Below are positions 1,370-14,175 of a DNA stretch of 49,723 nucleotides, in pieces. Each line of letters opens with the position of its first letter. The first letter of the stretch is position 1. The notes under the pieces are model-generated. The model saw nothing but the letters and a program-made list of their open reading frames with translations. It did no database searches and was not told where the DNA came from. The translations under genes were made by a program, and so were the position numbers. The stretch covers positions 2,908 through 52,630 of the forward strand of contig CAZZAE010000001.1 in assembly GCA_964652125.1 (NCBI GenBank), read 5' to 3'. This stretch comes from an uncultured Candidatus Saccharibacteria bacterium (GTDB taxonomy: Bacteria; Patescibacteriota; Saccharimonadia; Saccharimonadales; JANWIN01).

Positions 1370-2677
1370 TTAATGTCCAGCCGCAGCGTGTTGAGTGTCT
1401 TGGTGAAAGACGTGTTTTGATGGTCGGAAAAGTATCCAGAACAAGACACCGCCGGAAATAATAGTTATAGCGCCAACAGTAACTGGCGTACTAATTGCAA
1501 TCTCAGCCAAGTAACCGCTCATAGCAGCTGGTATAGCTTGAGCCAGAGCTTGAACTGAAAAGTTAATACCAAGTACCTCACCTTGAATCTCGGGTCCGAC
1601 AGTTGTACTGACTAGTGACGTGGAGTTGGCGATGGTTTGACCAATAAAGACACCAAACAGCGGTGTGACGAGTAGTAGTTGAGTTGTATCGTGAGCCCAA
1701 AGTAGTAAGAACAAACCGACACCAACAGCAATAATACTGACTCTCAGCACATTGTAGCTCTTTACTCTCTTAGCGACTTGGGGCGTTATGATAGCTTGAG
1801 TAAAGGCAATTATTAATCCAATGTAGGCAAAATAGTCACCGATATTATTTTGAGTAAAATGCAGTTTATTAATTAGTAAAACTTGGAAGAACGTTTGGAA
1901 GAACATGAAGCCTCCCCAGAATAAGAAGACGGTTGGAAAGATTACTCTAAGTCCTGGGTAGGTTGCAGCTTTGACAATGTTACTTACCGACTGAGTAAAT
2001 TTAACTTTGAGCCGGTGCATGTGTTGGTGTGTTTCAGGAAGCAGGAAGACAATGAACATAACATTTATGGCGCTAAGTATGGCAGTAAACCAAAACGGTG
2101 TAGCTGGGTTAAACCAGTGCGGGGTTTTAAATAGTCCAAAGACACTCACCCCAGGGCTGCCCATTTTAGCACCCGCATAGGGACCAAGTACAAACCCCAG
2201 CCCAAAAGCTGCACCAATTAAAGCGAAGTTTTTAGTTCGCTTAGCGGCTGGTGTCACGTCCGCAATAACAGCTTGGGCAACGCTTAAATTACCACCAGTA
2301 ATACCATCAAAGGCTCGGCTAAAGAACAGTAGTGGCAGGTTTCTGGTAATTATACCAATGGCAAAAAGGACATAACCAACTGCTGTACCAGCAATGCTCA
2401 GACCAAGTATTTTCTTTCGTCCAAAGCGGTCAGACAACTGGCCAAGAATTGGTGTCGACAAGAACTGCATAAACGGATAGATGGCAAGTAACCAACCCAG
2501 GAGTATCAATCCACCTTTAAAAGTCCAGCCAGCCGGGAGTAGATAGTAGGCCGAGTGGGGATTGGCAAGAAGTTGAGGGATAATTGGGATTAAAATACCG
2601 ACACCTAAAACGTCCAGAAATATGGTCAGCAAGACTGCTGGTAGGGCTCGGGCTTCGGCATGTTTTACTTGTTTCAT
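1370..2677 (-). CDS. MFS drug:H+ antiporter (TetA/DHA1-like)
   Basis: About 12 hydrophobic segments; motif A GQLSDRFGRK; antiporter motif C GAAFGLGFVLGP. Confidence 0.9.
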   Translation of the reverse strand: MKQVKHAEARALPAVLLTIFLDVLGVGILIPIIPQLLANPHSAYYLLPAGWTFKGGLILLGWLLAIYPFMQFLSTPILGQLSDRFGRKKILGLSIAGTAVGYVLFAIGIITRNLPLLFFSRAFDGITGGNLSVAQAVIADVTPAAKRTKNFALIGAAFGLGFVLGPYAGAKMGSPGVSVFGLFKTPHWFNPATPFWFTAILSAINVMFIVFLLPETHQHMHRLKVKFTQSVSNIVKAATYPGLRVIFPTVFLFWGGFMFFQTFFQVLLINKLHFTQNNIGDYFAYIGLIIAFTQAIITPQVAKRVKSYNVLRVSIIAVGVGLFLLLWAHDTTQLLLVTPLFGVFIGQTIANSTSLVSTTVGPEIQGEVLGINFSVQALAQAIPAAMSGYLAEIAISTPVTVGAITIISGGVLFWILFRPSKHVFHQDTQHAAAGH

Positions 2678-2695
2678 ATGTATATTTGTCCCTCC

Positions 2696-3148
2696 TTATG
2701 GGTGGTGAAAAGCTCCCTGCTTTTCAACGCACACGGCGTCGTGCATTATGTTTAAAATCTCCAGTAAGTTTTCTTGTTGTTTAGGACTTAAGCTAGCAAA
2801 AGTAGGGGCATGGTAATTATTCAAGATTAACATTGCTTGCTCAGTTAGTTTTTCACCTTTTGAAGTCAAGGTTGTGATATGTTCACGCTTATTTTCAGGA
2901 CTAATTCGGGTTCCTAGTAAGCCTTTATCGTGGAGCAATCTAATTTGGCGAGAAATACTAGCTTCAGTTTGGCCTAATTTGTCGGCAATTTGTTTTTGCT
3001 GAACAGACGGCTGCCATTTCAGTACCATCATAATCTTAAATTGGGAAAAGCCAATGCCTAATTGTTCTTGCAAAACTTGATCAGAATGGCGGCTTAGAAC
3101 GAAAGCCAGGTGATTGAGCATGTAACCAATGTTGTTTGACGATCTCAT
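2696..3148 (-). CDS. MarR family transcriptional regulator
   Basis: wHTH QKQIADKLGQTEASISRQIRLL, wing ENKRE..LTSKG; directly upstream of the MFS gene. Confidence 0.9.
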   Translation of the reverse strand: MRSSNNIGYMLNHLAFVLSRHSDQVLQEQLGIGFSQFKIMMVLKWQPSVQQKQIADKLGQTEASISRQIRLLHDKGLLGTRISPENKREHITTLTSKGEKLTEQAMLILNNYHAPTFASLSPKQQENLLEILNIMHDAVCVEKQGAFHHP

Positions 3149-3177
3149 AGGTAAGTCACTACTACTGTATTATATCA

Positions 3178-3197
3178 ATACTTAACAAGTCAAGTGT
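3178..3197. promoter_or_regulatory. putative MarR operator (imperfect inverted repeat) overlapping the marR promoter
   Basis: ATACTTAAC-AA-GTCAAGTGT (7/9 palindromic); contains a minus-strand TTGACT -35-like box upstream of marR. Confidence 0.5.
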
Positions 3198-3258
3198 TTT
3201 AAGAATTACGGCTAGAAATTTGTCACTATACTCAGACAAATGATTGAACTGGGGATTC

Positions 3259-4842
3259 TTAAGTTCCCCAGTTAGTAGCCAGGACTGATAGGTCAAAGAT
3301 GTTTACAGTGCCATCACCCGTTAAGTCACCCGTCGACAAGGTTTGTCCAGATTGACCAAAGTGCGAAGCTAGAATAGACAGGTCAAATATATCTACCGAT
3401 CCATCACTGTTAATATCACCTGGTTTTGCTTTAGTGTTTATGGAGTAAGCGGCGGATTGAGCTGAAGTATTTCCAGCAGCATCATTAGCGGCTACTTTGT
3501 AGAAGTAAGCGGTGTTTTGAGTTAGACCACTATCCGTATAGCTAGGCGTGGTGCTGGTGTTTAATTGAGTATAGGTTCCTGCTATTGTAGCTGACCTATA
3601 AATTTTGTAACCAGTAACTCCTACGTCATCGGTTGGTGCTATCCAGGTTAAATCAACTGAATTAGTAGTTTGATTTGGTGAAGTTAAACCGGTTGGAACA
3701 CCTGGGGCTGTCGTATCCGCCAGAGTACTGGTTGATAGCGCCGCAGATTGAGCTGAGGCATTGCCGGCGGCATCATTAGCTGTAACCTTGTAAAAGTAAG
3801 CAGTGTTAGGAGTTAGGCTGGTGTCAGTATAGGTAACTCCAGAAATTAAGCTGGGGTTAATTTTGGTATATGTGCCAGCTAGAGTTGTAGCTCTAAACAC
3901 ATTATAACCAGTAACCAGAACGTCGTCTGTCGATCCCGTCCAACTTATGGCAATAGAGGTGACGGTTCTTGTTCCTGCTACCGGAGTGCCTGGTACGGTT
4001 GGTGCCGTGGTATCGGGCAAAGTAGACATAGCCAGAGCTGTAGATTGAGCTGAAGTGTTACCAGCGGCATCAACGGCCGCGACAGTATATGAATAGCTTG
4101 TATTGGGTGTCAGACTGGTATTAGTAAAAGTTGTTGTCGTGACATTAGAGTTAATTAGAACTCCGTTACGGAAGATTTTGTAGGCCGTTACTCCAACGTT
4201 GTCTGTGGCAGCAGTCCAAGAGAAAGCTAGTGAGGTCACAGTTTTGGCTCCAGCGGTTAAGCCACCGGGAACTGTTGGTGCAGATGTATCGGCAATCGTA
4301 TAAGAACCTGGAACGGTTACAGCCAGAACGTTAACTGGGGTAGCGGCACCAGTCACAATCGCTGAAGTCGCATCAAAGGTAACAGGTGTCGTGCCAGTAG
4401 CTAGAGCTTTAAAGGTAATAGAAGCTACAATTTGATCACCCGTTAGATTGGTACCACTTTTAGCTCTGGCAATTTTAATACTGCCAGCGCCACCGCTGCC
4501 AGTTGCACTCAAGTCAAAGGCACTAGTAGAAGTATCCAGACTAACAAACTGAAGTTTGGTTTGATCGTAGGTTAAGTCGGCTTCAACAGCATTAATTGCA
4601 TCAGTGCCACTATTTTCATGGACAACAACGGTAAAGTTAGAACCAACGTTTTGAGTAGAAGATGCAGGGACTAGTGATAGAGAGTCACCGGCTGCGAAGC
4701 TATGAAATAACAAACGTGCACCAACACTAGCAAATAAAACTACTAATATTAATACTAATAAAGGTCGGGGTTTTCGTTGATTGTTTAAGAACCATGTTGA
4801 AAACTTTCTGCGCGATTTAATTGGTTTGGTTGATTTAACCAT
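3259..4842 (-). CDS. secreted cohesin + 3x fibronectin type III + C-terminal dockerin protein (adaptor scaffoldin-like)
   Basis: N-terminal hydrophobic signal ending SFAA; cohesin NAVEADLTYDQTKLQF..VASITFKAL; three DTxAPxVP..W..DxVxVTxY..DAAGN repeats; duplicated Ca-loop GDINSDGSVDIFDLS / GDLTGDGTVNIFDLS. Confidence 0.85.
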   Translation of the reverse strand: MVKSTKPIKSRRKFSTWFLNNQRKPRPLLVLILVVLFASVGARLLFHSFAAGDSLSLVPASSTQNVGSNFTVVVHENSGTDAINAVEADLTYDQTKLQFVSLDTSTSAFDLSATGSGGAGSIKIARAKSGTNLTGDQIVASITFKALATGTTPVTFDATSAIVTGAATPVNVLAVTVPGSYTIADTSAPTVPGGLTAGAKTVTSLAFSWTAATDNVGVTAYKIFRNGVLINSNVTTTTFTNTSLTPNTSYSYTVAAVDAAGNTSAQSTALAMSTLPDTTAPTVPGTPVAGTRTVTSIAISWTGSTDDVLVTGYNVFRATTLAGTYTKINPSLISGVTYTDTSLTPNTAYFYKVTANDAAGNASAQSAALSTSTLADTTAPGVPTGLTSPNQTTNSVDLTWIAPTDDVGVTGYKIYRSATIAGTYTQLNTSTTPSYTDSGLTQNTAYFYKVAANDAAGNTSAQSAAYSINTKAKPGDINSDGSVDIFDLSILASHFGQSGQTLSTGDLTGDGTVNIFDLSVLATNWGT

Positions 4843-6152
4843 TACTTGCCCTTCTGCCCATCTAATAGGTTAGAATTATTTGTTATATTATTTGCTTTCA
4901 GATCAGGGTGAATGATCTGTCCACCAGTACCTGCTCCGGCTGATACTGCGCCAGTTGGAGTTTTAGGTGCTTCTTTAACTGGAAGAGGACCAGCTTGGTC
5001 AGCAGGACTAGTTTTGGGAAAGTGACTAGCCAAATCTTTGCTGACGCCGCCTCTACGAATTGAATTGAAGAGACCACTACCACCACCAATGATGATGATA
5101 ATAACCACAACAGCTGCAACACCAATTAGTACTTTAACTAGTGTACTCGTTCCTATGTTCAGCTGAACCTTAAACTCTTGAACCGCTGTCAGCGAACCAT
5201 CAACCACAGTAATAACTTTTGTGGCTTGTTTATCCTTAGCTTTCACTACTACGGTATGTAGTCCAGCTTTTATATCAACATAACTGGCAGTACCAGTTGA
5301 GTCATAAGATAGTGGGGCTTTAGCATCTAGCGTAACTTGAGCATTTTGCACCGGCTTATGGCTGTTGTCTATTACTTTAATAGCAACTAAGTAGCCGTTT
5401 TGGCTTGTCAAACTTGCAACTTGAGTACTAGTTTTTTTAGCAGGGGTTTTAGCTTTAGTGGATGTGCTGGTGCTAGTTTTAGTCGGTGTTGTTGTTTGGG
5501 TGGTTGTTGTAGTTGTACCACCGGTAGTGGTTTTTTTAGTTGTCGTAGGTGTTGTCGTAGTGCCAGTTAGTGTATAAGTACCACCAGTGGTATTACCATC
5601 CCAGACATCTTGAGGAGGAGTAGTTTTAGTAACAATTCTGGAACAACCAGTCGTAGCTTGGCCACTGGAATTTTTAAGACAACGTCCATCAAAAGTAATT
5701 GACGTAGTTCCTGAACCAACTAAGGCAGTAAATTTAACTGAGGCGACTACTTGGCTTCCGGTTAGGCCACTGCTAGAAGTTGTATTGGCTCGGGCAATCT
5801 TTACACTGCCTGACCCACCGCTGCTAACGGCACCAATGTCAAAGGCACTATGACTGGTATCTATACTATTGAACTGGAGTTTAGATTGATCATATATAAG
5901 ATCGGCCTCTACTGCGTTAACTGGGTCGGAACTGGTTTCATAAATCGTAACACTGAAGGAAGCACCTTTTTTAAATGATCCACTAGCTGGACTTAAACTA
6001 AATTTGGCAGTGCCCGCGGCTGAGACTGATTTAGGTGCAGATGGACCAACCGTAAAACTAAGCAGCGTCAAGATACCAAGTACAAGCAGCCCAGTGCCCC
6101 ATGCCCGTGGTCTAGCCCACATGCTATATTTTTTATTATCTTTAATTTTCAA
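4842..6152 (-). CDS. membrane-anchored cohesin protein (anchoring scaffoldin-like): cohesin, Thr/Lys-rich linker, beta-sandwich, C-terminal TM
   Basis: Cohesin NAVEADLIYDQSKLQF; poly-Thr linker; TM VLIGVAAVVVIIIIIG; start revised from 6200 to TTG 6152 (GAGG 6 nt upstream); stop overlaps the next start (TAATG). Confidence 0.8.
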   Translation of the reverse strand: MKIKDNKKYSMWARPRAWGTGLLVLGILTLLSFTVGPSAPKSVSAAGTAKFSLSPASGSFKKGASFSVTIYETSSDPVNAVEADLIYDQSKLQFNSIDTSHSAFDIGAVSSGGSGSVKIARANTTSSSGLTGSQVVASVKFTALVGSGTTSITFDGRCLKNSSGQATTGCSRIVTKTTPPQDVWDGNTTGGTYTLTGTTTTPTTTKKTTTGGTTTTTTQTTTPTKTSTSTSTKAKTPAKKTSTQVASLTSQNGYLVAIKVIDNSHKPVQNAQVTLDAKAPLSYDSTGTASYVDIKAGLHTVVVKAKDKQATKVITVVDGSLTAVQEFKVQLNIGTSTLVKVLIGVAAVVVIIIIIGGGSGLFNSIRRGGVSKDLASHFPKTSPADQAGPLPVKEAPKTPTGAVSAGAGTGGQIIHPDLKANNITNNSNLLDGQKGK

Positions 6153-6409
6153 AGCTGACCTCTGTATTCCCTGATACGATAACATAACCGCTATGTGCAA
6201 TACAATAGATTTTTATTAATAACATTAGAAAGTTACTTCATCAAAGGATTAAATTCGATAATAAATAAAATATTTAGTAACTATCTTTAAGTTGATATTA
6301 TAATCGGTTGGGGTTATGGTTTATATAAAAGTAGACTTAAATAAGTAGCAAAATACAGGGTCGTGAATTTAAAAAAAATGTTAAATCTAGCCAGCCCCAA
6401 AGGCAGTTT

Positions 6410-9400
6410 ATGTTAAAGCAGGTCAAGCCTAGTTTTCGTAATGTCGCCATCTTAGTATTTATCATATTGTTTGCTGTTATTGGTTATTTGGCGCTAAGAA
6501 ATTCTCGGGCTTCTGGCGCTGATATTAATGGAGACGGTAGTGTTGATGTTTTTGATTTGAGTATTTTAGCTGCCAACTATGGACAAAGTGGTAAAACTTA
6601 TGCCCAAGGCGATATTACCGGTGACGGTACGGTTAATATATTGGACTTATCAGTATTGGCATCTGGTTGGGGTAATACTGGTAGTTCTCCTCAACCGACC
6701 TTGCCAATTAAAGCCATGTTCTACTATCCGTGGTTCCCAGACGCTTGGAATCAACAAGGCTTTAATCCTTTCACTAACTACACGCCCACGGCTGGACTTT
6801 ATAGTTCAACTGATAGTACCACTATTAACCGCCATATTGATGACATGATTTATGCTGGTATGAATTCAGCTATTTATTCCTGGTGGGGCCAAGGCAGTAA
6901 AGAAGATACCCGTTTCCAGGCCTTTTTGGATGCGACTGGTACAAAGCCTCTCAAATGGGCACTTTACTATGAATGTGAGGGTAATGGCTCTGGGGGAACT
7001 TGCGGCACAATCGGCGGTCCAGCACCATCATCAACTAACATTGCCAATGATTTGTCATATATAAAGACTCACTATACAAATAACGCTAATTATCTAAAGA
7101 TAAACAATAAGCCTGTCATCTTCGCATACGGTGACGGAACTGATTCCTGTGCTACCGCAACTAATTGGAAAAATGCTAATGCTACTCAGGGTTTCTATGT
7201 TGTCCTAAAAGTTTTTGGTGGCTACGCCACTTGTGCTGATCAGCCAGATAATTGGCATCAGTACGGACCGGCCACTGCTGAAGATGTTCAGGGCACACAT
7301 TCAATGTCTATCTCACCCGGTTATTGGAAGAAAGGCTGTCCTTATGGCGGTGGTCTGTGTTCTCAAGGAGATACTCAACCCTTCCTGGCACGTGATTTAA
7401 CACGCTGGAATACTAACGTCACTGATCTAAAGAATAGCACTGCTAACTTAAAATTAATAACTACCTATAATGAGTGGGGGGAGGGTAGCATAGTCGAATC
7501 TGCCGATGGTACTCTACCCAATGGCTGGCAATCCGCGTCCGGACATGGTCAGTTTATCGATAGTCTTCATCAAATACTTGTATCTGGTACTCCAGTAGAT
7601 AATCCACCATCCGTATCATTATCCTCACCAACCGCCGGCACGGTTAGTGGTAATGTAACCCTGACAGCTAATGCCTCTGATGATCATGGAGTCAGTAAGA
7701 TTGAGTTCTTAGTCGATGGCACGGTTGTAAATACCAGTGGTACCAATCCATCTAGTCCGTATAGTTTTACTTGGAATAGCACATCGATTGCTAACGGAAG
7801 TCATCTAATTACAGCCAGAGCCACTGATACCATTAATCAGCAAACGACTTCATCTAGTGTGACGGTAACTGTCGCCAATGATTCTACGGCTCCAAGTGTA
7901 CCATCCGGTTTGAGTGCTACGGCTACTTCCCCAACTCAAGTCAATTTAAGCTGGACAGCTTCAACAGACACCGGTGGCAGCGGTCTAGCTAAATACGAGA
8001 TTTCAAGGGGAGGAACAATTCTGGCCACAATCAATGCTCCGACTACTACTTATAGCGACACAACTGTTAGTCCAAGCACTACCTATTCATACACTGTAAA
8101 AGCTATTGATGGGGCTGGAAATAAATCAGCAGCATCCATTGCAGCTTCAGTAACAACACCTGCCAACACTGACACTACAGCACCTACTGTTCCAGGTAGT
8201 TTTACTGCTTCTCTACCGATTACGACTGCCAAAACTGTTCATCTTAGTTGGACAGCATCCACTGATACTGGTGGCAGCGGAGTTAATCACTATATACTTT
8301 CACGAAATGGAACAGTCATAGCTAATCCATCAGCGGCGGCAGCGACTAGCTATGACGACACTACTACTATTTACAGCACGGCCTATACGTATACAATTGC
8401 TGCTGTAGATAATGCCGGGAATGTCTCCGGAGCAGCTACAGCCACAATTACAACACCAGCTGCGCCAGCCGATACCCAAGCTCCTAATGTTCCCACCGCC
8501 ACCGCAGCAGTAGTTTCGCCGACTCAGGTGACCATAAGTTGGACTGCAGTGACAGATAATCCAACTGACGGTACCGCCTCCGGAGTAAAGGGATACCGTG
8601 TCTTCCGAGATGGTGTCCAGATTGCCGATATTCTTTCACCTTCTACTTCGACTAATGATGGACCATTTAGCTTCGTATCGGGACAGAGCTATAGCTATAA
8701 GGTCGCAGCTTATGATGTAGCTGGAAACGTTTCTGCCCAATCCGCGGCATCAAGCGTCATTCCAAATCCAGTTGTCGCATCAGGCAATAGATGCAATAAC
8801 ACTGCCACTGGCAATAAAATTGACACTATTGTAGTTATTTCCGAAGAAAATAGAACATGGAGTAATGTCGGAGGTCCTGGCTTCTCAGCATCGACTATGC
8901 CATACACTCATACCTTAGCGGCAGAGTGTGGCTTTTTCCAGAACGATACCGAGATTAACTTAACGGAAAACTCTCTGACTCAGTATATTAGTGTCTGGAC
9001 AGGTCAAAATGATCCCAATGGTATTGGAAATGACTGCGATCCCACCACGACGTGTAGTTACACTGGTAACAATATCTTTAGGGTATTTCGAAATGCCGGC
9101 ATTCCTCACCGAGAATATGTTGAAGGTGCGACCACTACTTGTTCGGCTTCCGGCAATGCCCCCAAACATATACCTGAGCTGTATATGTGGGATCCAACCG
9201 ATAGGGCTGCCTGTAATACCGAGGTACTACCTATAAGCCAATTCAATTTTGCTACTCCACCAACTGGCTATACCTTTATTACACCAACGCTTTGTAATGA
9301 CGGACATGATTGTGGCGATAGCACGGTTGACAGTTGGTTATCCAATACCTCTCGCTTACCGGCTCTATTCAACTCGACCGCTTACAAATCCGGAAAAGTC

Positions 9401-9601
9401 TTAGTTGAAATTTGGTACGATGAAGATCACCCAAAACCAAACTTATTTGCCTGCTGGTCATGTCACCAATTTAATTCATCAGTTGATCCACACTACTCTG
9501 GCGAATCACTGCTGTGGCTAAACTTAATGAATGCAGATAGTAGTAATTTGGGAGGTGTCTCAACTGGAACAGACATCCGCTCAATAGTGGGTACTCCATA
9601 A
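6410..9601 (+). CDS. secreted multidomain enzyme: dockerin + GH99/GH71-like glycoside hydrolase + Ig-like + 3x FN3 + phosphoesterase-family (acid phosphatase) domain
   Basis: Dockerin DINGDGSVDVFDLS/DITGDGTVNILDLS; FYYPW, YSWWG, YLKINNKPVIF, TYNEWGEGS; phosphoesterase motifs VVISEENRT, KHIP, CNDGHD, WYDE. Confidence 0.8.
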   Translation: MLKQVKPSFRNVAILVFIILFAVIGYLALRNSRASGADINGDGSVDVFDLSILAANYGQSGKTYAQGDITGDGTVNILDLSVLASGWGNTGSSPQPTLPIKAMFYYPWFPDAWNQQGFNPFTNYTPTAGLYSSTDSTTINRHIDDMIYAGMNSAIYSWWGQGSKEDTRFQAFLDATGTKPLKWALYYECEGNGSGGTCGTIGGPAPSSTNIANDLSYIKTHYTNNANYLKINNKPVIFAYGDGTDSCATATNWKNANATQGFYVVLKVFGGYATCADQPDNWHQYGPATAEDVQGTHSMSISPGYWKKGCPYGGGLCSQGDTQPFLARDLTRWNTNVTDLKNSTANLKLITTYNEWGEGSIVESADGTLPNGWQSASGHGQFIDSLHQILVSGTPVDNPPSVSLSSPTAGTVSGNVTLTANASDDHGVSKIEFLVDGTVVNTSGTNPSSPYSFTWNSTSIANGSHLITARATDTINQQTTSSSVTVTVANDSTAPSVPSGLSATATSPTQVNLSWTASTDTGGSGLAKYEISRGGTILATINAPTTTYSDTTVSPSTTYSYTVKAIDGAGNKSAASIAASVTTPANTDTTAPTVPGSFTASLPITTAKTVHLSWTASTDTGGSGVNHYILSRNGTVIANPSAAAATSYDDTTTIYSTAYTYTIAAVDNAGNVSGAATATITTPAAPADTQAPNVPTATAAVVSPTQVTISWTAVTDNPTDGTASGVKGYRVFRDGVQIADILSPSTSTNDGPFSFVSGQSYSYKVAAYDVAGNVSAQSAASSVIPNPVVASGNRCNNTATGNKIDTIVVISEENRTWSNVGGPGFSASTMPYTHTLAAECGFFQNDTEINLTENSLTQYISVWTGQNDPNGIGNDCDPTTTCSYTGNNIFRVFRNAGIPHREYVEGATTTCSASGNAPKHIPELYMWDPTDRAACNTEVLPISQFNFATPPTGYTFITPTLCNDGHDCGDSTVDSWLSNTSRLPALFNSTAYKSGKVLVEIWYDEDHPKPNLFACWSCHQFNSSVDPHYSGESLLWLNLMNADSSNLGGVSTGTDIRSIVGTP

Positions 9602-9625
9602 AATGACAAACTATAAAGGAAGCAT

Positions 9626-10114
9626 ATGAACCAGGATAATAAATCACAACCACCCCTTTCGGTACCCACACAACCTGGTCAACAGCGATCGCAGAGATTC
9701 ATGGCCTTGGTTTTGGTTTTTATCTTGATCTTAGCCGGACTAGGACTGAGTTGGCATAATCACAAAAACCCCAGCCCAAGAAAAACATTTACTCAAAAAC
9801 CTGAAAGTGGACTACAAACGGAGAGTGAACTTGGTGATTATAAACACGAAATTACTATTACCATCACTGCCAAAGGGGTATCGCCGCAGACCCTAAATAT
9901 ACCAAGTGACACCCGTATTATTTGGATGAATACAGATAAGGTTAAGCACAAACTAGCTATTACCCCAGGTACGCTGGTTCCTCCTAAGTTTGATAATTTT
10001 CACCAAGTTGATCCAGGTGGCGGCTATCCTTACGTCATCCACCAAGCAGTAACATTTCATTACTATCTAGTGGATAATCCCAAACAGGGTGGAACAGTAA
10101 TAGTAAAGAATTAG
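9626..10114 (+). CDS. membrane-anchored cupredoxin-fold protein lacking copper ligands
   Basis: TM then ITITAKGVSPQTLNI..IIWMNTDKVKH..GGTVIVK pattern; no Cys in the protein. Confidence 0.55.
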   Translation: MNQDNKSQPPLSVPTQPGQQRSQRFMALVLVFILILAGLGLSWHNHKNPSPRKTFTQKPESGLQTESELGDYKHEITITITAKGVSPQTLNIPSDTRIIWMNTDKVKHKLAITPGTLVPPKFDNFHQVDPGGGYPYVIHQAVTFHYYLVDNPKQGGTVIVKN

Positions 10115-10187
10115 TTTGTTAAACTAATAATTGAAAGTGCTAGTGTTAAAATGGTGCCAAACGGGACTGCTATTGTATGATTGAATT

Positions 10188-11576
10188 ATGAAGAAGCTAT
10201 CTCCACCCATAAAGGTAGTGCTTTTATTGGTAGTAATTTTTGCTATTAGTCTAGGTTATGCATTGCTTCATAAATCTGAAGCGGCCAGTGCCGATGTAAA
10301 TAGCGATGGGACTGTAGATATTTTTGATTTAAGCATTCTCGCCAGTAATTGGAACAAAACCGGTCAAACCTTCGCCCAAGGTGATATTAATGGTGACGGC
10401 ATTGTAAACATTTTAGATCTCAGTGTTTTAGCTAGCCAATGGGGAGCCGCAAATACTTGTACAGGTGTAAATATGACCAATGGCCAAACCGATATTAATA
10501 ATAATCCTAGTGGAACAACTTTTTGTTTAAGCGGTACTCATAACTGGACCTTGACGCCGAAATCTGGTGATTCATTTATCGGCCCGGCTATTTTAGACGG
10601 AACTCATACTACCCAATATGCCATATTAGGTAATGGCACTTCTAACGTCACTCTATCTAACCTGGAAGTACGAAATTATTATGCCAATGCCAATTCACTA
10701 GCCGCAATTGCCGGACACGGCACTACTAACTGGAAATTCTTAAACTTACAAGTACACGATAATGGTACCAGCGGACAAGGTGGTACGGGCGCAGAGTTAG
10801 GAGCATTCTCACAAGTCGTTGGTGGGCGTTATTACAATAACCGTCATCTTGGTATCGGTGGTGGAGGCGGTGCTCATGACTGGGTAATTAATGGTGCCGA
10901 GATTGATCATAATAATTTTACTGATGATACTTACACAACTCGAGACACGGATTGTGGCTGGGAAGCCGGGGGAGTAAAGTATGTCGCCTATAACATAACG
11001 ATTGAAAATTCTAAAGTTCACGACAATGCCTGTAAGGGCATTTGGTCAGATATCAACGCCAACAATAATACAATTATTAACAACCAAGTCTACAACAACT
11101 GGGATGAGGGTATCTTTATGGAAATAAGTTCCAATGGGACAATTTCTGGTAATACTGTTTATGGGAATGGACTAAAAGACATTAACGGTTGTACCTGGTT
11201 ATGGAGTGGCGGTATTACCCTTGCCGCGTCAGATCACTTTGATGTCCATGACAATATCGTCTATGGCAACTGCAACCCTATCACAGGTATTCAACAGACT
11301 CGAACTGATGGTAATCCAGGACTGCTCGAATTTGACAGTTTCCACGATAATCAAATCTATGCCACTACGGCAACCCATGGAATCACAGGTGTAGTTTCAG
11401 ACAATGGATCCGATCTATCGACCCGAAATATTACATTTACAAACAATCATTATCACCTGTCGAATTTGACTGGCAATTGGTTTGAATGGAAAAATAGCAC
11501 CATCAATAAAACGACTTGGGTTGGATACGGAAATGATACCACCGGCACTTTTGATACAAACACAACTGTTCCCTAG
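10188..11576 (+). CDS. secreted dockerin + right-handed parallel beta-helix (pectin lyase-like) protein
   Basis: Signal ending SEAA; dockerin DVNSDGTVDIFDLS/DINGDGIVNILDLS; repeated VHDN/IxNNxVYxN..GI beta-helix rungs. Confidence 0.8.
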   Translation: MKKLSPPIKVVLLLVVIFAISLGYALLHKSEAASADVNSDGTVDIFDLSILASNWNKTGQTFAQGDINGDGIVNILDLSVLASQWGAANTCTGVNMTNGQTDINNNPSGTTFCLSGTHNWTLTPKSGDSFIGPAILDGTHTTQYAILGNGTSNVTLSNLEVRNYYANANSLAAIAGHGTTNWKFLNLQVHDNGTSGQGGTGAELGAFSQVVGGRYYNNRHLGIGGGGGAHDWVINGAEIDHNNFTDDTYTTRDTDCGWEAGGVKYVAYNITIENSKVHDNACKGIWSDINANNNTIINNQVYNNWDEGIFMEISSNGTISGNTVYGNGLKDINGCTWLWSGGITLAASDHFDVHDNIVYGNCNPITGIQQTRTDGNPGLLEFDSFHDNQIYATTATHGITGVVSDNGSDLSTRNITFTNNHYHLSNLTGNWFEWKNSTINKTTWVGYGNDTTGTFDTNTTVP

Positions 11577-11605
11577 ATACTTAAGTTCCAAAGCTAGTCT
11601 CGGCT

Positions 11606-12379
11606 TTACTTGCTTTTGTAAACAAGCTTATATAAATTAAACCAGTCTTCGAGACTAAGCGCTTGAGCTCTATTTTGTATCGGTATGCTGGCCTCCTCTA
11701 GTAATTTCTCAATTTCTTTCTTATCTTGTTGCAGACCAGCGCTCAATGAATTTATCAAAGTTTTACGACGATTAGCAAAACCAGCTTTAACTAGCCGGAA
11801 AAATAGTTTGTTGTCGACATCAAAGATTGGACTGGTTCGTCTTTTAAGTATTAGGATCTGGGAGTCGACTTTAGGAGCCGGTTTAAAAAGTTTGGCCGGG
11901 ACAACTTGGCCCAGACTAACTTGGCAATAATACTGGATACTAACGGCAAGAATACTCATGTCTCCCGGAGCGGCATTAACACGCTCGGCAACCTCTTTTT
12001 GAACGAGTAGTGCTGCTCGAGAGAAAGGATTGGCAGACTCGCAGAGAATCCTTAGTAACTTATTAGTTAGATAGTAAGGAATGTTGGCGACCACTTTATA
12101 GTCTTTAGGAAGTTTGGTCAGGTCAAAGCTTAAAATATCACCAGCAATAACTTCCAAATTATTAGCTGTTTTAGAATTTAACAAACTAGCCAGAGATTCA
12201 TCTAGTTCAACGGCAATTACGTGCTTAGCTTTAGCTGTTAAGAGTTTTGTTAGGCTCCCTTGTCCGGGACCAATTTCCAAAACAACATCATCACTACTAA
12301 CCTCTGCAGCTTGGCGGATAGCTTCCAGACTGGCTTGGTCATTTAGCCAGTGCTGACCAAGTGACTTATTGTTTATCAT
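11606..12379 (-). CDS. rsmA: 16S rRNA adenine dimethyltransferase
   Basis: KSLGQHWL, VLEIGPGQG, VANIPYY, QKEVAER, PAPKVDS, RRKTL. Confidence 0.95.
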   Translation of the reverse strand: MINNKSLGQHWLNDQASLEAIRQAAEVSSDDVVLEIGPGQGSLTKLLTAKAKHVIAVELDESLASLLNSKTANNLEVIAGDILSFDLTKLPKDYKVVANIPYYLTNKLLRILCESANPFSRAALLVQKEVAERVNAAPGDMSILAVSIQYYCQVSLGQVVPAKLFKPAPKVDSQILILKRRTSPIFDVDNKLFFRLVKAGFANRRKTLINSLSAGLQQDKKEIEKLLEEASIPIQNRAQALSLEDWFNLYKLVYKSK

Positions 12380-12817: not shown

Positions 12818-14098
12818 TTACCAATAAGTATGCGCATACCAGAAGTTGTAGGCTCCAGACCAACTACCATAGTGACCATCGGCATAACTAGTGGCCCATT
12901 TTAGTTGAGTGACGGCACTAGTCTGCCAGTCATTACCAAAAGGAGCCATTTTATCGCCCGGCGTTGCTTGACCCAAGCCATAGCCATAGCAACAGGTTGG
13001 AATGCTGGCCGGAGCAAAGCCCGGACAACTACCATACTGACCTTGAAGTTTAGTTGGGCACCAACCTGATTCACGACTAACTATGTAGTTAACATAAGGA
13101 TAGTCGGATGAGGATATGCCAGCGGCACTCATTAGGACTGACTTATCGGCAGGAATGTAGATGGCTTTACCCCGGGCAATTATTTCCGTAACCGGATGGA
13201 CAGCAATGATTTCTTGGATCTTTTTACGTGATATTTCCTTGCCATTTTTTGTTGTAATTGAGTAGGTTACCAGTTTCTTGCCGGCCGCACCCTTCTGACG
13301 AAGAACCGTGGTGCCAAAAGATAAGCTGCTATCTTCAATAGTTTTAGTCGGCGCTGGTATGGCCTCAGTAACACTAATTATCTTGGTGCCTTTTCGCGAA
13401 ACTATGACGGACAAGCCAGGTGTAATATGCGTAGAGAAACTCGGACTGACATTGTCGCTATGACTAAGTTTTACATTTTCCTGTGTGAGTAACTCACGAA
13501 CAGTTTTAGCATGGGACCTGATTGCTACTGGTGTACCGTATAGATTCAAATAAACCAAGGTAGCCGGGTCAATAACAAGTTCTTGGCCAATACTGCCGGT
13601 ATGAAGAATATTATCTGGAATTTTAAGTTCTAGATTGTCTTCGGGATAAACCTGGACACCGGCTTGGGCGGCAATACTGCGTGGTGTTGTGGCGGCACTA
13701 AAGACAAAAGTTCGGTGTATGCCCTCGACGATGGTGATAGGCTGAGCACGGTAAACATTAACCCTAAAGTTGTCTTCAACTATATTAGTAGTAAGATCTG
13801 GTTCGACAACATCTCCCTTGTTAATCTTTATTTTAAGTCGCTTTAGCAGCTCACCTACAGTTGGTGCCCGGGTAGGAACGGTAGTTTGTTTTTTATCGTT
13901 GGTCAGTATGACTACATGGGAATCTCCAGCCCCGACTGTTTGCCCTCCCAGGGCAACAAAAGCTACAGCTGTAATAAACAGTAAAGAAATAAGTGTTGTA
14001 ACCGGAACAATGAAAGGGTGGTTTTTGAATCTTAGCAGTCGCTTGCGTTTTGAAGACACGTATTTTTTAGAGAATTTTCTGAACTTGAATTTACGCAT
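12818..14098 (-). CDS. resuscitation-promoting factor/YabE-like protein (TM, DUF348 repeats, G5, lysozyme-like C-terminus)
   Basis: TRAPTVGELL/AKTVRELL DUF348 repeats; G5 GAAGKKLVTY..PVTEIIARG; catalytic-like SRESGW, YGLGQA, YGSWSGA; ATG 14098 preferred over TTG 14137. Confidence 0.8.
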   Translation of the reverse strand: MRKFKFRKFSKKYVSSKRKRLLRFKNHPFIVPVTTLISLLFITAVAFVALGGQTVGAGDSHVVILTNDKKQTTVPTRAPTVGELLKRLKIKINKGDVVEPDLTTNIVEDNFRVNVYRAQPITIVEGIHRTFVFSAATTPRSIAAQAGVQVYPEDNLELKIPDNILHTGSIGQELVIDPATLVYLNLYGTPVAIRSHAKTVRELLTQENVKLSHSDNVSPSFSTHITPGLSVIVSRKGTKIISVTEAIPAPTKTIEDSSLSFGTTVLRQKGAAGKKLVTYSITTKNGKEISRKKIQEIIAVHPVTEIIARGKAIYIPADKSVLMSAAGISSSDYPYVNYIVSRESGWCPTKLQGQYGSCPGFAPASIPTCCYGYGLGQATPGDKMAPFGNDWQTSAVTQLKWATSYADGHYGSWSGAYNFWYAHTYW

Positions 14099-14175
14099 AT
14101 TGGCGGTTTTGGATGATAATTGTCCACCCAAAGCCAACTAACAGTTTAACAAAGTTAACGATGCTACTAAAGTGG

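Follow-up and report, generated by a model that had tools for sequence, protein, structure and literature searches.

The question raised by this locus is whether a bacterium with a genome of 936 kb (0.94 Mb, 95% complete) can hold enzymes on its surface through cohesin and dockerin modules, and whether such an assembly deserves the name of a cellulosome. The locus occupies positions 3259-11576 of the window, the whole stretch of 49,723 nucleotides analysed here, which comes from an uncultured Candidatus Saccharibacteria bacterium (assembly GCA_964652125.1, contig CAZZAE010000001.1). Five open reading frames (ORFs) in two divergent groups were recognised from the ORF list and the sequence. One group encodes a cohesin protein with a membrane segment (the anchor) and a protein composed of a cohesin, three FN3 domains, and a dockerin (the adaptor). 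The other includes the genes of two dockerin-bearing proteins (cargo 1 and cargo 2). In the original prediction, they were described as a cellulosome-like but non-cellulolytic surface assembly. All of the genes were located where they had been placed, and the start of the adaptor gene does overlap the stop of the anchor gene as TAATG. The observation was confirmed with two corrections, which concern the identity among the dockerins and between the cohesins. The locus probably encodes a small surface display system with cohesins and dockerins in two tiers, which belongs to a soil bacterium of the Saccharimonadia (Saccharibacteria, within the candidate phyla radiation, CPR).

Cohesins of the anchor and the adaptor

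The features of the two proteins are as follows.

4842-6200, minus strand: anchor gene, with signal peptide, one cohesin, Thr-rich linker, small beta-sandwich, C-terminal membrane helix, and a tail of about 70 residues (ORF and model)
5565-6023, minus strand: anchor cohesin, residues 60-212 of the 452-residue ORF (PF00963, model, and Foldseek)
5052-5144, minus strand: C-terminal transmembrane helix of the anchor (hydropathy 347-382; modelled helix 348-378 in the 447-residue numbering)
3259-4842, minus strand: adaptor gene, 527 residues, with signal peptide, cohesin, three FN3 domains, and C-terminal dockerin; its ATG overlaps the TAA of the anchor gene
4291-4701, minus strand: adaptor cohesin, residues 48-184 (PF00963)
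3445-4281, minus strand: three FN3 domains of the adaptor, about residues 188-466 (Pfam fn3; PDB sequence matches to FN3 arrays)
3262-3426, minus strand: adaptor dockerin, residues 473-527, two Ca-loop/helix repeats with IF/IF at positions 10-11 (PF00404)

The curated gathering cut-off of the cohesin family PF00963 is 24.1 bits. When the domains were scanned alone, the adaptor cohesin reached 46.3 bits and the anchor cohesin 32.5 bits, and the family assignment was thus upheld. A six-frame search of the genome returned exactly two matches, the adaptor (45.7 bits) and the anchor (31.9 bits). Both cohesins were missed in the whole-protein Pfam scan at E<=0.1. This miss is a filter effect of the Thr/Ser-rich full-length proteins and not an absence, because both domains pass the cut-off alone and in the six-frame search. 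Surveys relying on whole-protein Pfam scans probably undercount the cohesins in Thr/Ser-rich surface proteins of CPR bacteria.

The AlphaFold model of the anchor cohesin, obtained from 48 related domains, is all beta, in keeping with the nine-stranded beta-sandwich of cohesins, and has a pLDDT of 95.1 and a pTM of 0.89. A Foldseek search with this model retrieved 89 matches in the PDB at E<=0.001, and all of those listed are cohesin modules. The top match is 6kgf_C (E 2.2e-9, TM 0.70/0.73), and the best TM scores among the matches listed are 0.70-0.76. The sequence identity to the solved cohesins is 10-18%. The model therefore matches solved type I cohesins rather than an unrelated fold. The fold evidence comes from the anchor, and the adaptor cohesin is assigned by profile. 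The two cohesins of the window had been called closely similar. The quoted motifs, among them those of the beta3 and beta6 strands (NAVEADLxY and KIARA), are indeed common to both, but their overall identity is only 50-52%.

The anchor is 452 residues long from a TTG start and 447 residues long from an ATG five codons in, which is the form in the protein database. Hydropathy shows two hydrophobic stretches, residues 33-55 and 347-382. The full-length model, in the 447-residue numbering, consists of a helix (31-43), the cohesin (60-207, pLDDT 80-95), a disordered part (213-261), a beta-sandwich (265-341, pLDDT 77-92), a second helix (348-378), and a disordered tail (379-447). The position of the beta-sandwich is occupied by PF13620 in anchor homologues. 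The anchor is accordingly modelled as a type I membrane protein, whose single cohesin lies distal to the Thr-rich stalk and the beta-sandwich, above the C-terminal membrane helix. The claim of a membrane-anchored cohesin is supported by the C-terminal hydrophobic segment together with the modelled helix.

The adaptor, which is probably secreted, has a single hydrophobic stretch, at its N-terminus (residues 26-50). Its fn3 score is 83.1 bits over three stretches of the whole protein, and the proposed cohesin-FN3x3-dockerin architecture is borne out by Pfam matches for all three domain types. Cohesin and dockerin are thus combined in one non-catalytic protein, as in the scaffoldin ScaC.

Dockerins and cargo proteins

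The two cargo proteins of the locus have the following layout.

6410-9601, plus strand: cargo 1, 1063 residues, with signal peptide, dockerin (about 6512-6691), GH99-like domain (about 6707-7600), Big_7, FN3-like repeats, and phosphoesterase-like domain (about 8882-9427) (Pfam)
10188-11576, plus strand: cargo 2, 462 residues, with signal peptide, dockerin (about 10284-10463), and right-handed beta-helix (about 10704-11534) (Pfam)

The curated cut-off of the dockerin family PF00404 (Dockerin_1) is 22.9 bits. The whole-protein scores are 34.5 bits for the adaptor, 29.3 bits for cargo 1, and 39.8 bits for cargo 2, which sustains the claim of two dockerin-bearing cargo proteins. The dockerins consist of two 22-residue repeats, each with a 12-residue Ca loop (D or N at positions 1, 3, 5, 9, and 12) and a helix. 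All of the loops are canonical except for a Thr at position 3 of the second repeat in the adaptor and cargo 1. The residues at repeat positions 10-11 had been quoted correctly and are IF/IF in the adaptor, VF/IL in cargo 1, and IF/IL in cargo 2. The description of the three dockerins as near-identical had to be corrected. Their pairwise identities are 63, 64, and 69%, and they are similar rather than near-identical.

A scan of the genome for further dockerin cargo, which the original prediction had proposed, found four more proteins. They are denoted C5 (32.0 bits), C16 (39.2 bits), C50 (32.8 bits), and C8 (29.7 bits). Genome-wide, there are seven clear dockerin proteins with closely related dockerins, namely the adaptor and six cargo proteins, and one marginal protein. 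The dockerin follows directly after the signal peptide in five of the six cargo proteins. A contig-end fragment (C33, bases 1-765) has two dockerin-like Ca loops that are unusually far apart, and its Dockerin_1 score of 22.7 bits is just below the cut-off. This fragment may belong to an eighth, divergent dockerin protein.

By family, the cargo domains appear to be glycan- or phosphoester-active types. The Glyco_hydro_99 match of cargo 1 scores 32.1 bits in the whole protein against a cut-off of 33 and 37.2 bits alone, and it covers only profile positions 56-177 of 341. Its PDB sequence matches are endo-alpha-mannosidases at E 1.6e-6 over only 67 residues. A NEWGEG stretch is present in cargo 1, which we take to be the catalytic motif of GH99. 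The C-terminal domain alone gave a partial match to Phosphoesterase PF04185 with 26.7 bits against a cut-off of 23. Of the proposed GH99-like and phosphoesterase assignment, both domains pass their cut-offs when scanned alone, whereas the GH99 match is below the cut-off in the whole protein and both matches are partial. Designed 'Pizza' propellers were the sole PDB sequence matches of the C-terminal domain. No stretch of it passed alone, and these matches were judged to be a composition artefact. Cargo 1 has an orthologue of 80% identity in G181, a genome of the same genus. The same genome encodes a protein of 373 residues (L050, G181:C7, ORF 1399-2517 of the locus) with a signal peptide, a dockerin, and a domain that closely resembles the phosphoesterase-like part of cargo 1. 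Hence this part forms a module of its own, which can be coupled to a dockerin without the other domains of cargo 1.

Cargo 2 matches Beta_helix with 40.5 bits as a whole protein and 44 bits alone, and no solved sequence relative was found at E<=0.01 in the PDB sequence search. Among the cargo encoded elsewhere, C16 combines the dockerin with GH114 (177.9 bits) and C50 with GH5 (129.2 bits). The nearest solved sequence relatives of the GH5 domain are endoglucanases (E 2.1e-9). C5 carries DUF3472 and a divergent C-terminal dockerin. The domain of C8 matched no Pfam family at E<=10 beyond a chance-level match. An Atlas feature search related it at 0.95 to glycosidases of the Asl1-like/GH39/Glyco_hydro_cc type, which is a lead only.

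Distribution among related genomes

Genome samples were searched with both Pfam models (PF00963 and PF00404) at E<=1e-4. In the sample of the order (201 genomes), 44 genomes have a cohesin, 44 a dockerin, 31 both, and 144 neither, and about 10 with both would be expected if the modules were independent. In the sample of the phylum (301 genomes), the corresponding numbers are 72, 76, 37, and 190, with about 18 expected. These counts are descriptive. Related genomes are not independent, and hence no probability is given. The modules are carried by about a quarter of the sampled Patescibacteria genomes.

In addition, 27 related loci were selected from species-representative genomes by cohesin match alone, with a six-row anchor alignment as the query. 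Their titles are almost all Saccharibacteria, Saccharimonadia, or Saccharimonadales. A dockerin gene lies near the cohesin in 22 of the 27 loci, mostly immediately upstream and overlapping. Typically, a cargo gene whose product ends with a dockerin directly adjoins the anchor gene or overlaps with it. The other five loci (L025, L028, L033, L036, and L038) have a cohesin only, with no dockerin within the locus DNA. Adaptor-type ORFs, with cohesin and dockerin in one frame, occur in eight of the 27 loci, four of them beside a separate anchor. They were also found in G181, G142, G171, and G010, genomes that had been chosen for close-lying modules. With a profile of 48 cohesins, 15,345 cluster representatives were matched at E<=0.001, of which 701 remained at the stricter E<=1e-30, and multi-cohesin relatives have up to 12 matched stretches in one protein. 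The cohesin-dockerin kit is widespread among the relatives of this bacterium.

In G181, the gene order KsgA, small protein, cargo 1, anchor, adaptor, MarR, and MFS is kept. The beta-helix dockerin gene beside ksgA in the window is absent at that place in G181 (L043), which has one on another contig (L049). Cargo genes therefore move within these small genomes.

Larger sets of modules were also seen. G010 (L046, G010:C5) encodes four consecutive cohesin proteins and gave 16 dockerin matches, and G363 of the phylum sample gave 20 dockerin matches. In one locus (L031, DATLEQ010000018.1), titled Candidatus Limnocylindrales (Chloroflexota), three genes of dockerin cargo precede the gene of an anchor cohesin that belongs to the present family. 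It could be a case of mis-binning or of transfer.

Proposed assembly

We infer binding between the modules because of their family membership, fold, co-occurrence, adjacency, fusion, and translational coupling. By analogy with type I pairs, each dockerin would bind a cohesin in a Ca-dependent manner. The secreted enzymes would then be held non-covalently on the cell, either directly on the anchor or through the adaptor, and seven plugs would compete for two kinds of socket. The adaptor would itself plug into the anchor and shift the free socket outward by three FN3 lengths, and it may also change the specificity. The near-symmetric repeats of the dockerins would permit either binding orientation. 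The docked enzymes would act on extracellular glycans. An A-x-A then (A)G(S/T) motif is conserved just before every cohesin, and S-x-A then (A/S/T) stands ahead of the cargo dockerins. We infer that both motifs fit cleavage by signal peptidase. Prediction of the complex between the anchor cohesin and the adaptor dockerin gave scores of 0.28 and 0.10 against a mark of 0.32. It was run without controls and speaks neither for nor against the pairing.

Several points weigh against the two-tier display. Within a genome, the dockerins of adaptor and cargo resemble each other to the same degree as dockerins that have the same role in different genomes, which fits one specificity per genome. The beta3 and beta6 strands of the cohesins vary together with unusual dockerin helices in L044, L045, and L046, but the cohesin paralogues of these loci cluster by genome. 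This co-variation is therefore confounded and is kept as a hint only. The GH99 and phosphoesterase assignments of cargo 1 are partial and close to the cut-offs. The N-terminal hydrophobic stretches found by hydropathy have a considerable length of about 20-28 residues, and they may remain uncleaved and act as anchors. At the threshold used, 13 of the 44 cohesin-positive genomes of the order are without a dockerin, and 13 of the 44 dockerin-positive genomes are without a cohesin. Parallel changes of the adaptor and cargo 1 dockerins between the window and G181 (repeat-1 positions 10, 14, and 18) had been considered as a sign of co-adaptation. This candidate was dropped, as the two other dockerins of G181 do not share these changes.

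Two tiers or one

One alternative is a flat system in place of a fixed hierarchy of three levels, in which both cohesins take every dockerin and the adaptor is an extension arm that could chain head to tail or link cells. It is possible, although we do not consider it probable. The evidence on the tiers is divided between the cohesins and the dockerins, and within each of them. In the cohesin tree, the window adaptor belongs to a clade of 10 rows with seven adaptors (support 88/90), and the window anchor to a clade of 17 rows with 12 anchors (support 98/92). These separate, older clades are kept in the window genome, L043, L016, and L027. They suggest different roles of the two cohesins and speak against a flat system. 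On the other hand, the adaptor and anchor cohesins pair within the genome in L044, L045, and L017, and the beta3 and beta6 motifs shared by the window cohesins also favour a common specificity.

The dockerins are similarly divided. The adaptor dockerin of the window shares the recognition chemistry (IF, VF, and IL) of the cargo dockerins, with 56-71% identity to the five N-terminal ones and 44% to the divergent C5, and the adaptor dockerin of L045 is 94% identical to its own cargo dockerin, as a flat system would have it. However, the adaptor dockerins of the window, L043, and L027 resemble one another slightly more than they resemble the dockerins of their own cargo, and the identity of the window adaptor dockerin to those of other adaptors is 71-83%. 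Furthermore, the second repeat of the adaptor reads IF at the place where IL or VL stands in each of the five N-terminal cargo dockerins. If the specificity is the same and each protein has one socket, the adaptor adds reach and not capacity, and it could chain. As for the proposed order of anchor, adaptor, and cargo, the layout is present and its parts recur side by side in related genomes, but the cohesin tree and the dockerin similarities conflict on the tiers.

Possible targets and the cellulosome question

A strict cellulosome, with a multi-cohesin scaffoldin, was not found, since the genome has two cohesins, one per protein. Likewise, no carbohydrate-binding module (CBM) family was among the Pfam matches of the anchor and the adaptor at E<=0.1 or those of the cohesin regions at E<=10. 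The wording 'cellulosome-like' is right because most of the defining features of a strict cellulosome fail. The wording 'non-cellulolytic' is not secure, as one of the six cargo proteins, encoded elsewhere in the genome, is an endoglucanase-like GH5 protein. The rest are the GH99-like/phosphoesterase-like, beta-helix, GH114, and DUF3472 proteins and one with an unnamed domain. As judged by family, the GH114, GH99-like, and phosphoesterase-like domains suggest glycans of a microbial envelope or matrix, and the GH5 and beta-helix domains would also allow plant or fungal polymers. Our guess for the target is a host envelope or a biofilm matrix, and plant or fungal polymers of the soil are equally allowed by the data.

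It is rather unlikely that the same assembly is a true minimal cellulosome for nutrition, by which the cell, or the cell together with its host, attaches to plant or fungal polysaccharide of the soil and ferments the freed sugars. The GH5 cargo points in this direction, and the dockerin proteins also include one with a beta-helix and one with a GH-A-like domain. The window DNA is present in four soil-metagenome DNA runs of one study, which is possibly that of the source sample. The published reading of a rhizosphere Saccharibacterium pair as a simple cellulosome, in the part of that paper available (PMC6031116), agrees with this explanation, as does the reading of cellulosome-related genes of SR1 and OD1 as a means of complex carbon degradation in the accessible text of another (PMC3812714). 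However, the system proteins scanned are without a CBM match, and a cellulase family is found in just one cargo protein. Each scaffold has one socket, and hence there is no synergy from enzyme proximity. We also count against a nutritional cellulosome that GH114, GH99-like, and phosphoesterase-like domains are not known to act on the cellulose of plant cell walls.

It is very unlikely that the modules do not bind each other, in which case the dockerins would be Ca-binding parts that stabilise proteins or bind the wall, and the cohesins would serve as Ig-like spacers in surface proteins that have nothing to do with them. Repeats of the dockerin type are widespread with no known cohesin partner, and at the thresholds used 13 of 44 genomes of the order carry just one of the two modules. 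However, the modules co-occur in 31 of 201 genomes against about 10 expected, they are adjacent in 22 of the 27 loci, often with overlapping stop and start, both are fused in the adaptor proteins, the curated cut-offs are passed, and the fold matches cohesins that were solved in dockerin complexes.

Genomic surroundings

Two further features of the locus are listed here.

6201-6409, no strand: intergenic region between the two gene groups, 209 bp, AT-rich, divergent
9626-10114, plus strand: small membrane protein of 162 residues, encoded between cargo 1 and cargo 2, whose membrane segment is N-terminal

The small protein could be a member of the system. It has a weak cupredoxin-like match (Cupredoxin_1, 20.2 bits, below the cut-off of 27) and a 66% identical orthologue at the same position in G181. 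A pattern scan for promoters and terminators in 2600-11800 showed no excess of sites over shuffled sequences (for the promoter patterns, 22 against a mean of 21.4), and no promoter or operon boundary was assigned. No RNA run was among the sequencing runs listed as containing the window DNA.

The neighbouring genes are ordinary. A DEAD-box helicase, an MFS transporter, and MarR lie on one side, and the opposite flank has KsgA, a protein with a PCC domain, one with G5/DUF348, and UvrD. A protein of 439 residues with DUF348 and G5 is encoded at 12818-14137 on the minus strand, a few genes away from the locus. Its architecture is one known from actinobacterial wall-remodelling proteins of the RpfB type.

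Comparison with known systems

The anchor resembles OlpA and OlpC of C. thermocellum and ScaE of R. flavefaciens, in which one surface-held cohesin takes dockerin proteins directly. The OlpA and OlpC cohesin complexes (3ul4 and 4dh2) are among the structural matches of the anchor cohesin. Anchors of this type are fixed to the wall by SLH modules or by sortase. The present anchor has instead a membrane helix near its C-terminus, on which a PF13620-type beta-sandwich and a Thr-rich stalk are placed. An SLH module was not among the Pfam matches of the anchor and the adaptor, and LPXTG was not seen in the anchor sequence.

The adaptor is similar to ScaC of R. flavefaciens, a monovalent protein with one cohesin and one dockerin that plugs into another cohesin protein, as described in the available portion of PMC5429695. 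The ScaC cohesin (5lxv) is also among the structural matches of the anchor cohesin. By the same portion, ScaC switches specificity by taking in group 3/6 dockerins and offering a group 1 dockerin. In contrast, the present adaptor has three FN3 spacers and is predicted to dock to a membrane anchor, not to a multi-cohesin scaffoldin, and a switch of specificity would be hypothetical here.

The best structural matches (6kgf, 6kge, 2vn5, 2vn6, and 1g1k; E 2e-9 to 1e-7) belong to two type I pairs, CaCohA2-Doc0917 of C. acetobutylicum and Coh1-DocCel5A of C. cellulolyticum. Clostridial type I dockerins likewise have about 55 residues in two near-symmetric repeats, with hydrophobic residues at positions 10-11, where the dockerins of C. 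cellulolyticum have a hydrophobic pair. However, the clostridial pairs come from scaffoldins that have several cohesins and a CBM, in bacteria that are cellulolytic or related to cellulolytic ones, whereas the present system has single cohesins, no CBM match, and mostly N-terminal dockerins in a CPR bacterium of 0.94 Mb.

An assembly of glycan-cutting enzymes by cohesin and dockerin outside cellulose degradation is also known from the glycoside hydrolases of C. perfringens, such as GH84C NagJ. The cohesin-FN3 construct of NagJ (2w1n) is a weak sequence match of the adaptor (E 0.0028, residues 64-268), and 2vo8 and 2jh2 are among the structural matches of the anchor cohesin. In C. perfringens, the modules are on the enzymes themselves and join enzyme to enzyme. 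Here, in contrast, the cohesins are on dedicated non-catalytic proteins, the anchor and the adaptor. A reduced system is that of ClcC and ClcD of Cellulosilyticum lentocellum, where one cohesin protein and a neighbouring dockerin enzyme form a complex that was shown there, according to the section of PMC13487519 that was available. The same section gives one cohesin and one dockerin for that genome, both on cellulose-active proteins, whereas two cohesins, seven dockerins, and mixed cargo are found here.

In the phylum itself, some of this is already known. The available text of Starr et al. (2018, PMC6031116) reports a 'simple, two-subunit cellulosome' of T. rhizospherense, a Saccharibacterium of the rhizosphere soil, and reads it as a means of attachment and degradation. 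Kantor et al. (2013, PMC3812714), in the part accessible, mention a dockerin-like protein and a 'cellulosome anchoring protein' of SR1 and a 'cellulosome-related gene cluster' of OD1. In the available text of Wang et al. (2023, PMC10633639), SEML1_0315 of Southlakia epibionticum is a dockerin-domain envelope protein essential in co-culture, with a speculated host-glycan target. In the supplementary tables of that paper, as far as they were available, it is an essential hypothetical protein of 2784 nt with Ig/FN3-type domains, and neither 'dockerin' nor 'cohesin' appears in them. The word 'cohesin' occurs 0 times in the portions available of the main text and the five supplementary files. The T. 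rhizospherense and Southlakia mentions concern cohesin or dockerin parts in the same phylum, take one sentence each in the portions available, and are likened to the present system by description and not by sequence.

The anchor and adaptor tiers, the cargo inventory, and the distribution are not described in these earlier mentions, as far as their available text goes (PMC6031116, PMC3812714, and PMC10633639). No dedicated study of Saccharibacteria cohesin-dockerin systems was found in open-access papers and bioRxiv. What is new is therefore the two-tier layout of a membrane-helix anchor and a monovalent FN3 adaptor, with mostly N-terminal dockerins and mixed glycan-active cargo, in a CPR genome.

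Implications

The Saccharibacteria, like the rest of the CPR bacteria, spend their lives attached to bacterial hosts, and little is known of the mechanism of attachment and feeding. If the sockets and plugs bind as predicted, the system would offer a simple and testable model for the arming of an ultrasmall cell with enzymes that can be exchanged on its surface. As a speculation that we hold to be rather unlikely, cohesin-dockerin display may be a main host-handling route of the Saccharibacteria and other CPR bacteria, and not a leftover of cellulose degradation. Exchangeable enzymes on the anchor, with the reach of the FN3 adaptor and possible head-to-tail chains, would open the envelope or matrix of the host (mannans, galactosaminoglycan or Pel-type polymers, glucans, and phospholipid-linked glycans) for attachment and feeding. 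Should this be true, the two sockets for seven plugs imply that the surface enzyme set could be re-dealt by expression. The interest of the system would be higher if both the binding and the host-directed action are true. With binding as predicted, cohesin-dockerin biology would extend well past the degradation of plant cell walls, over a family with 15,345 cluster representatives.

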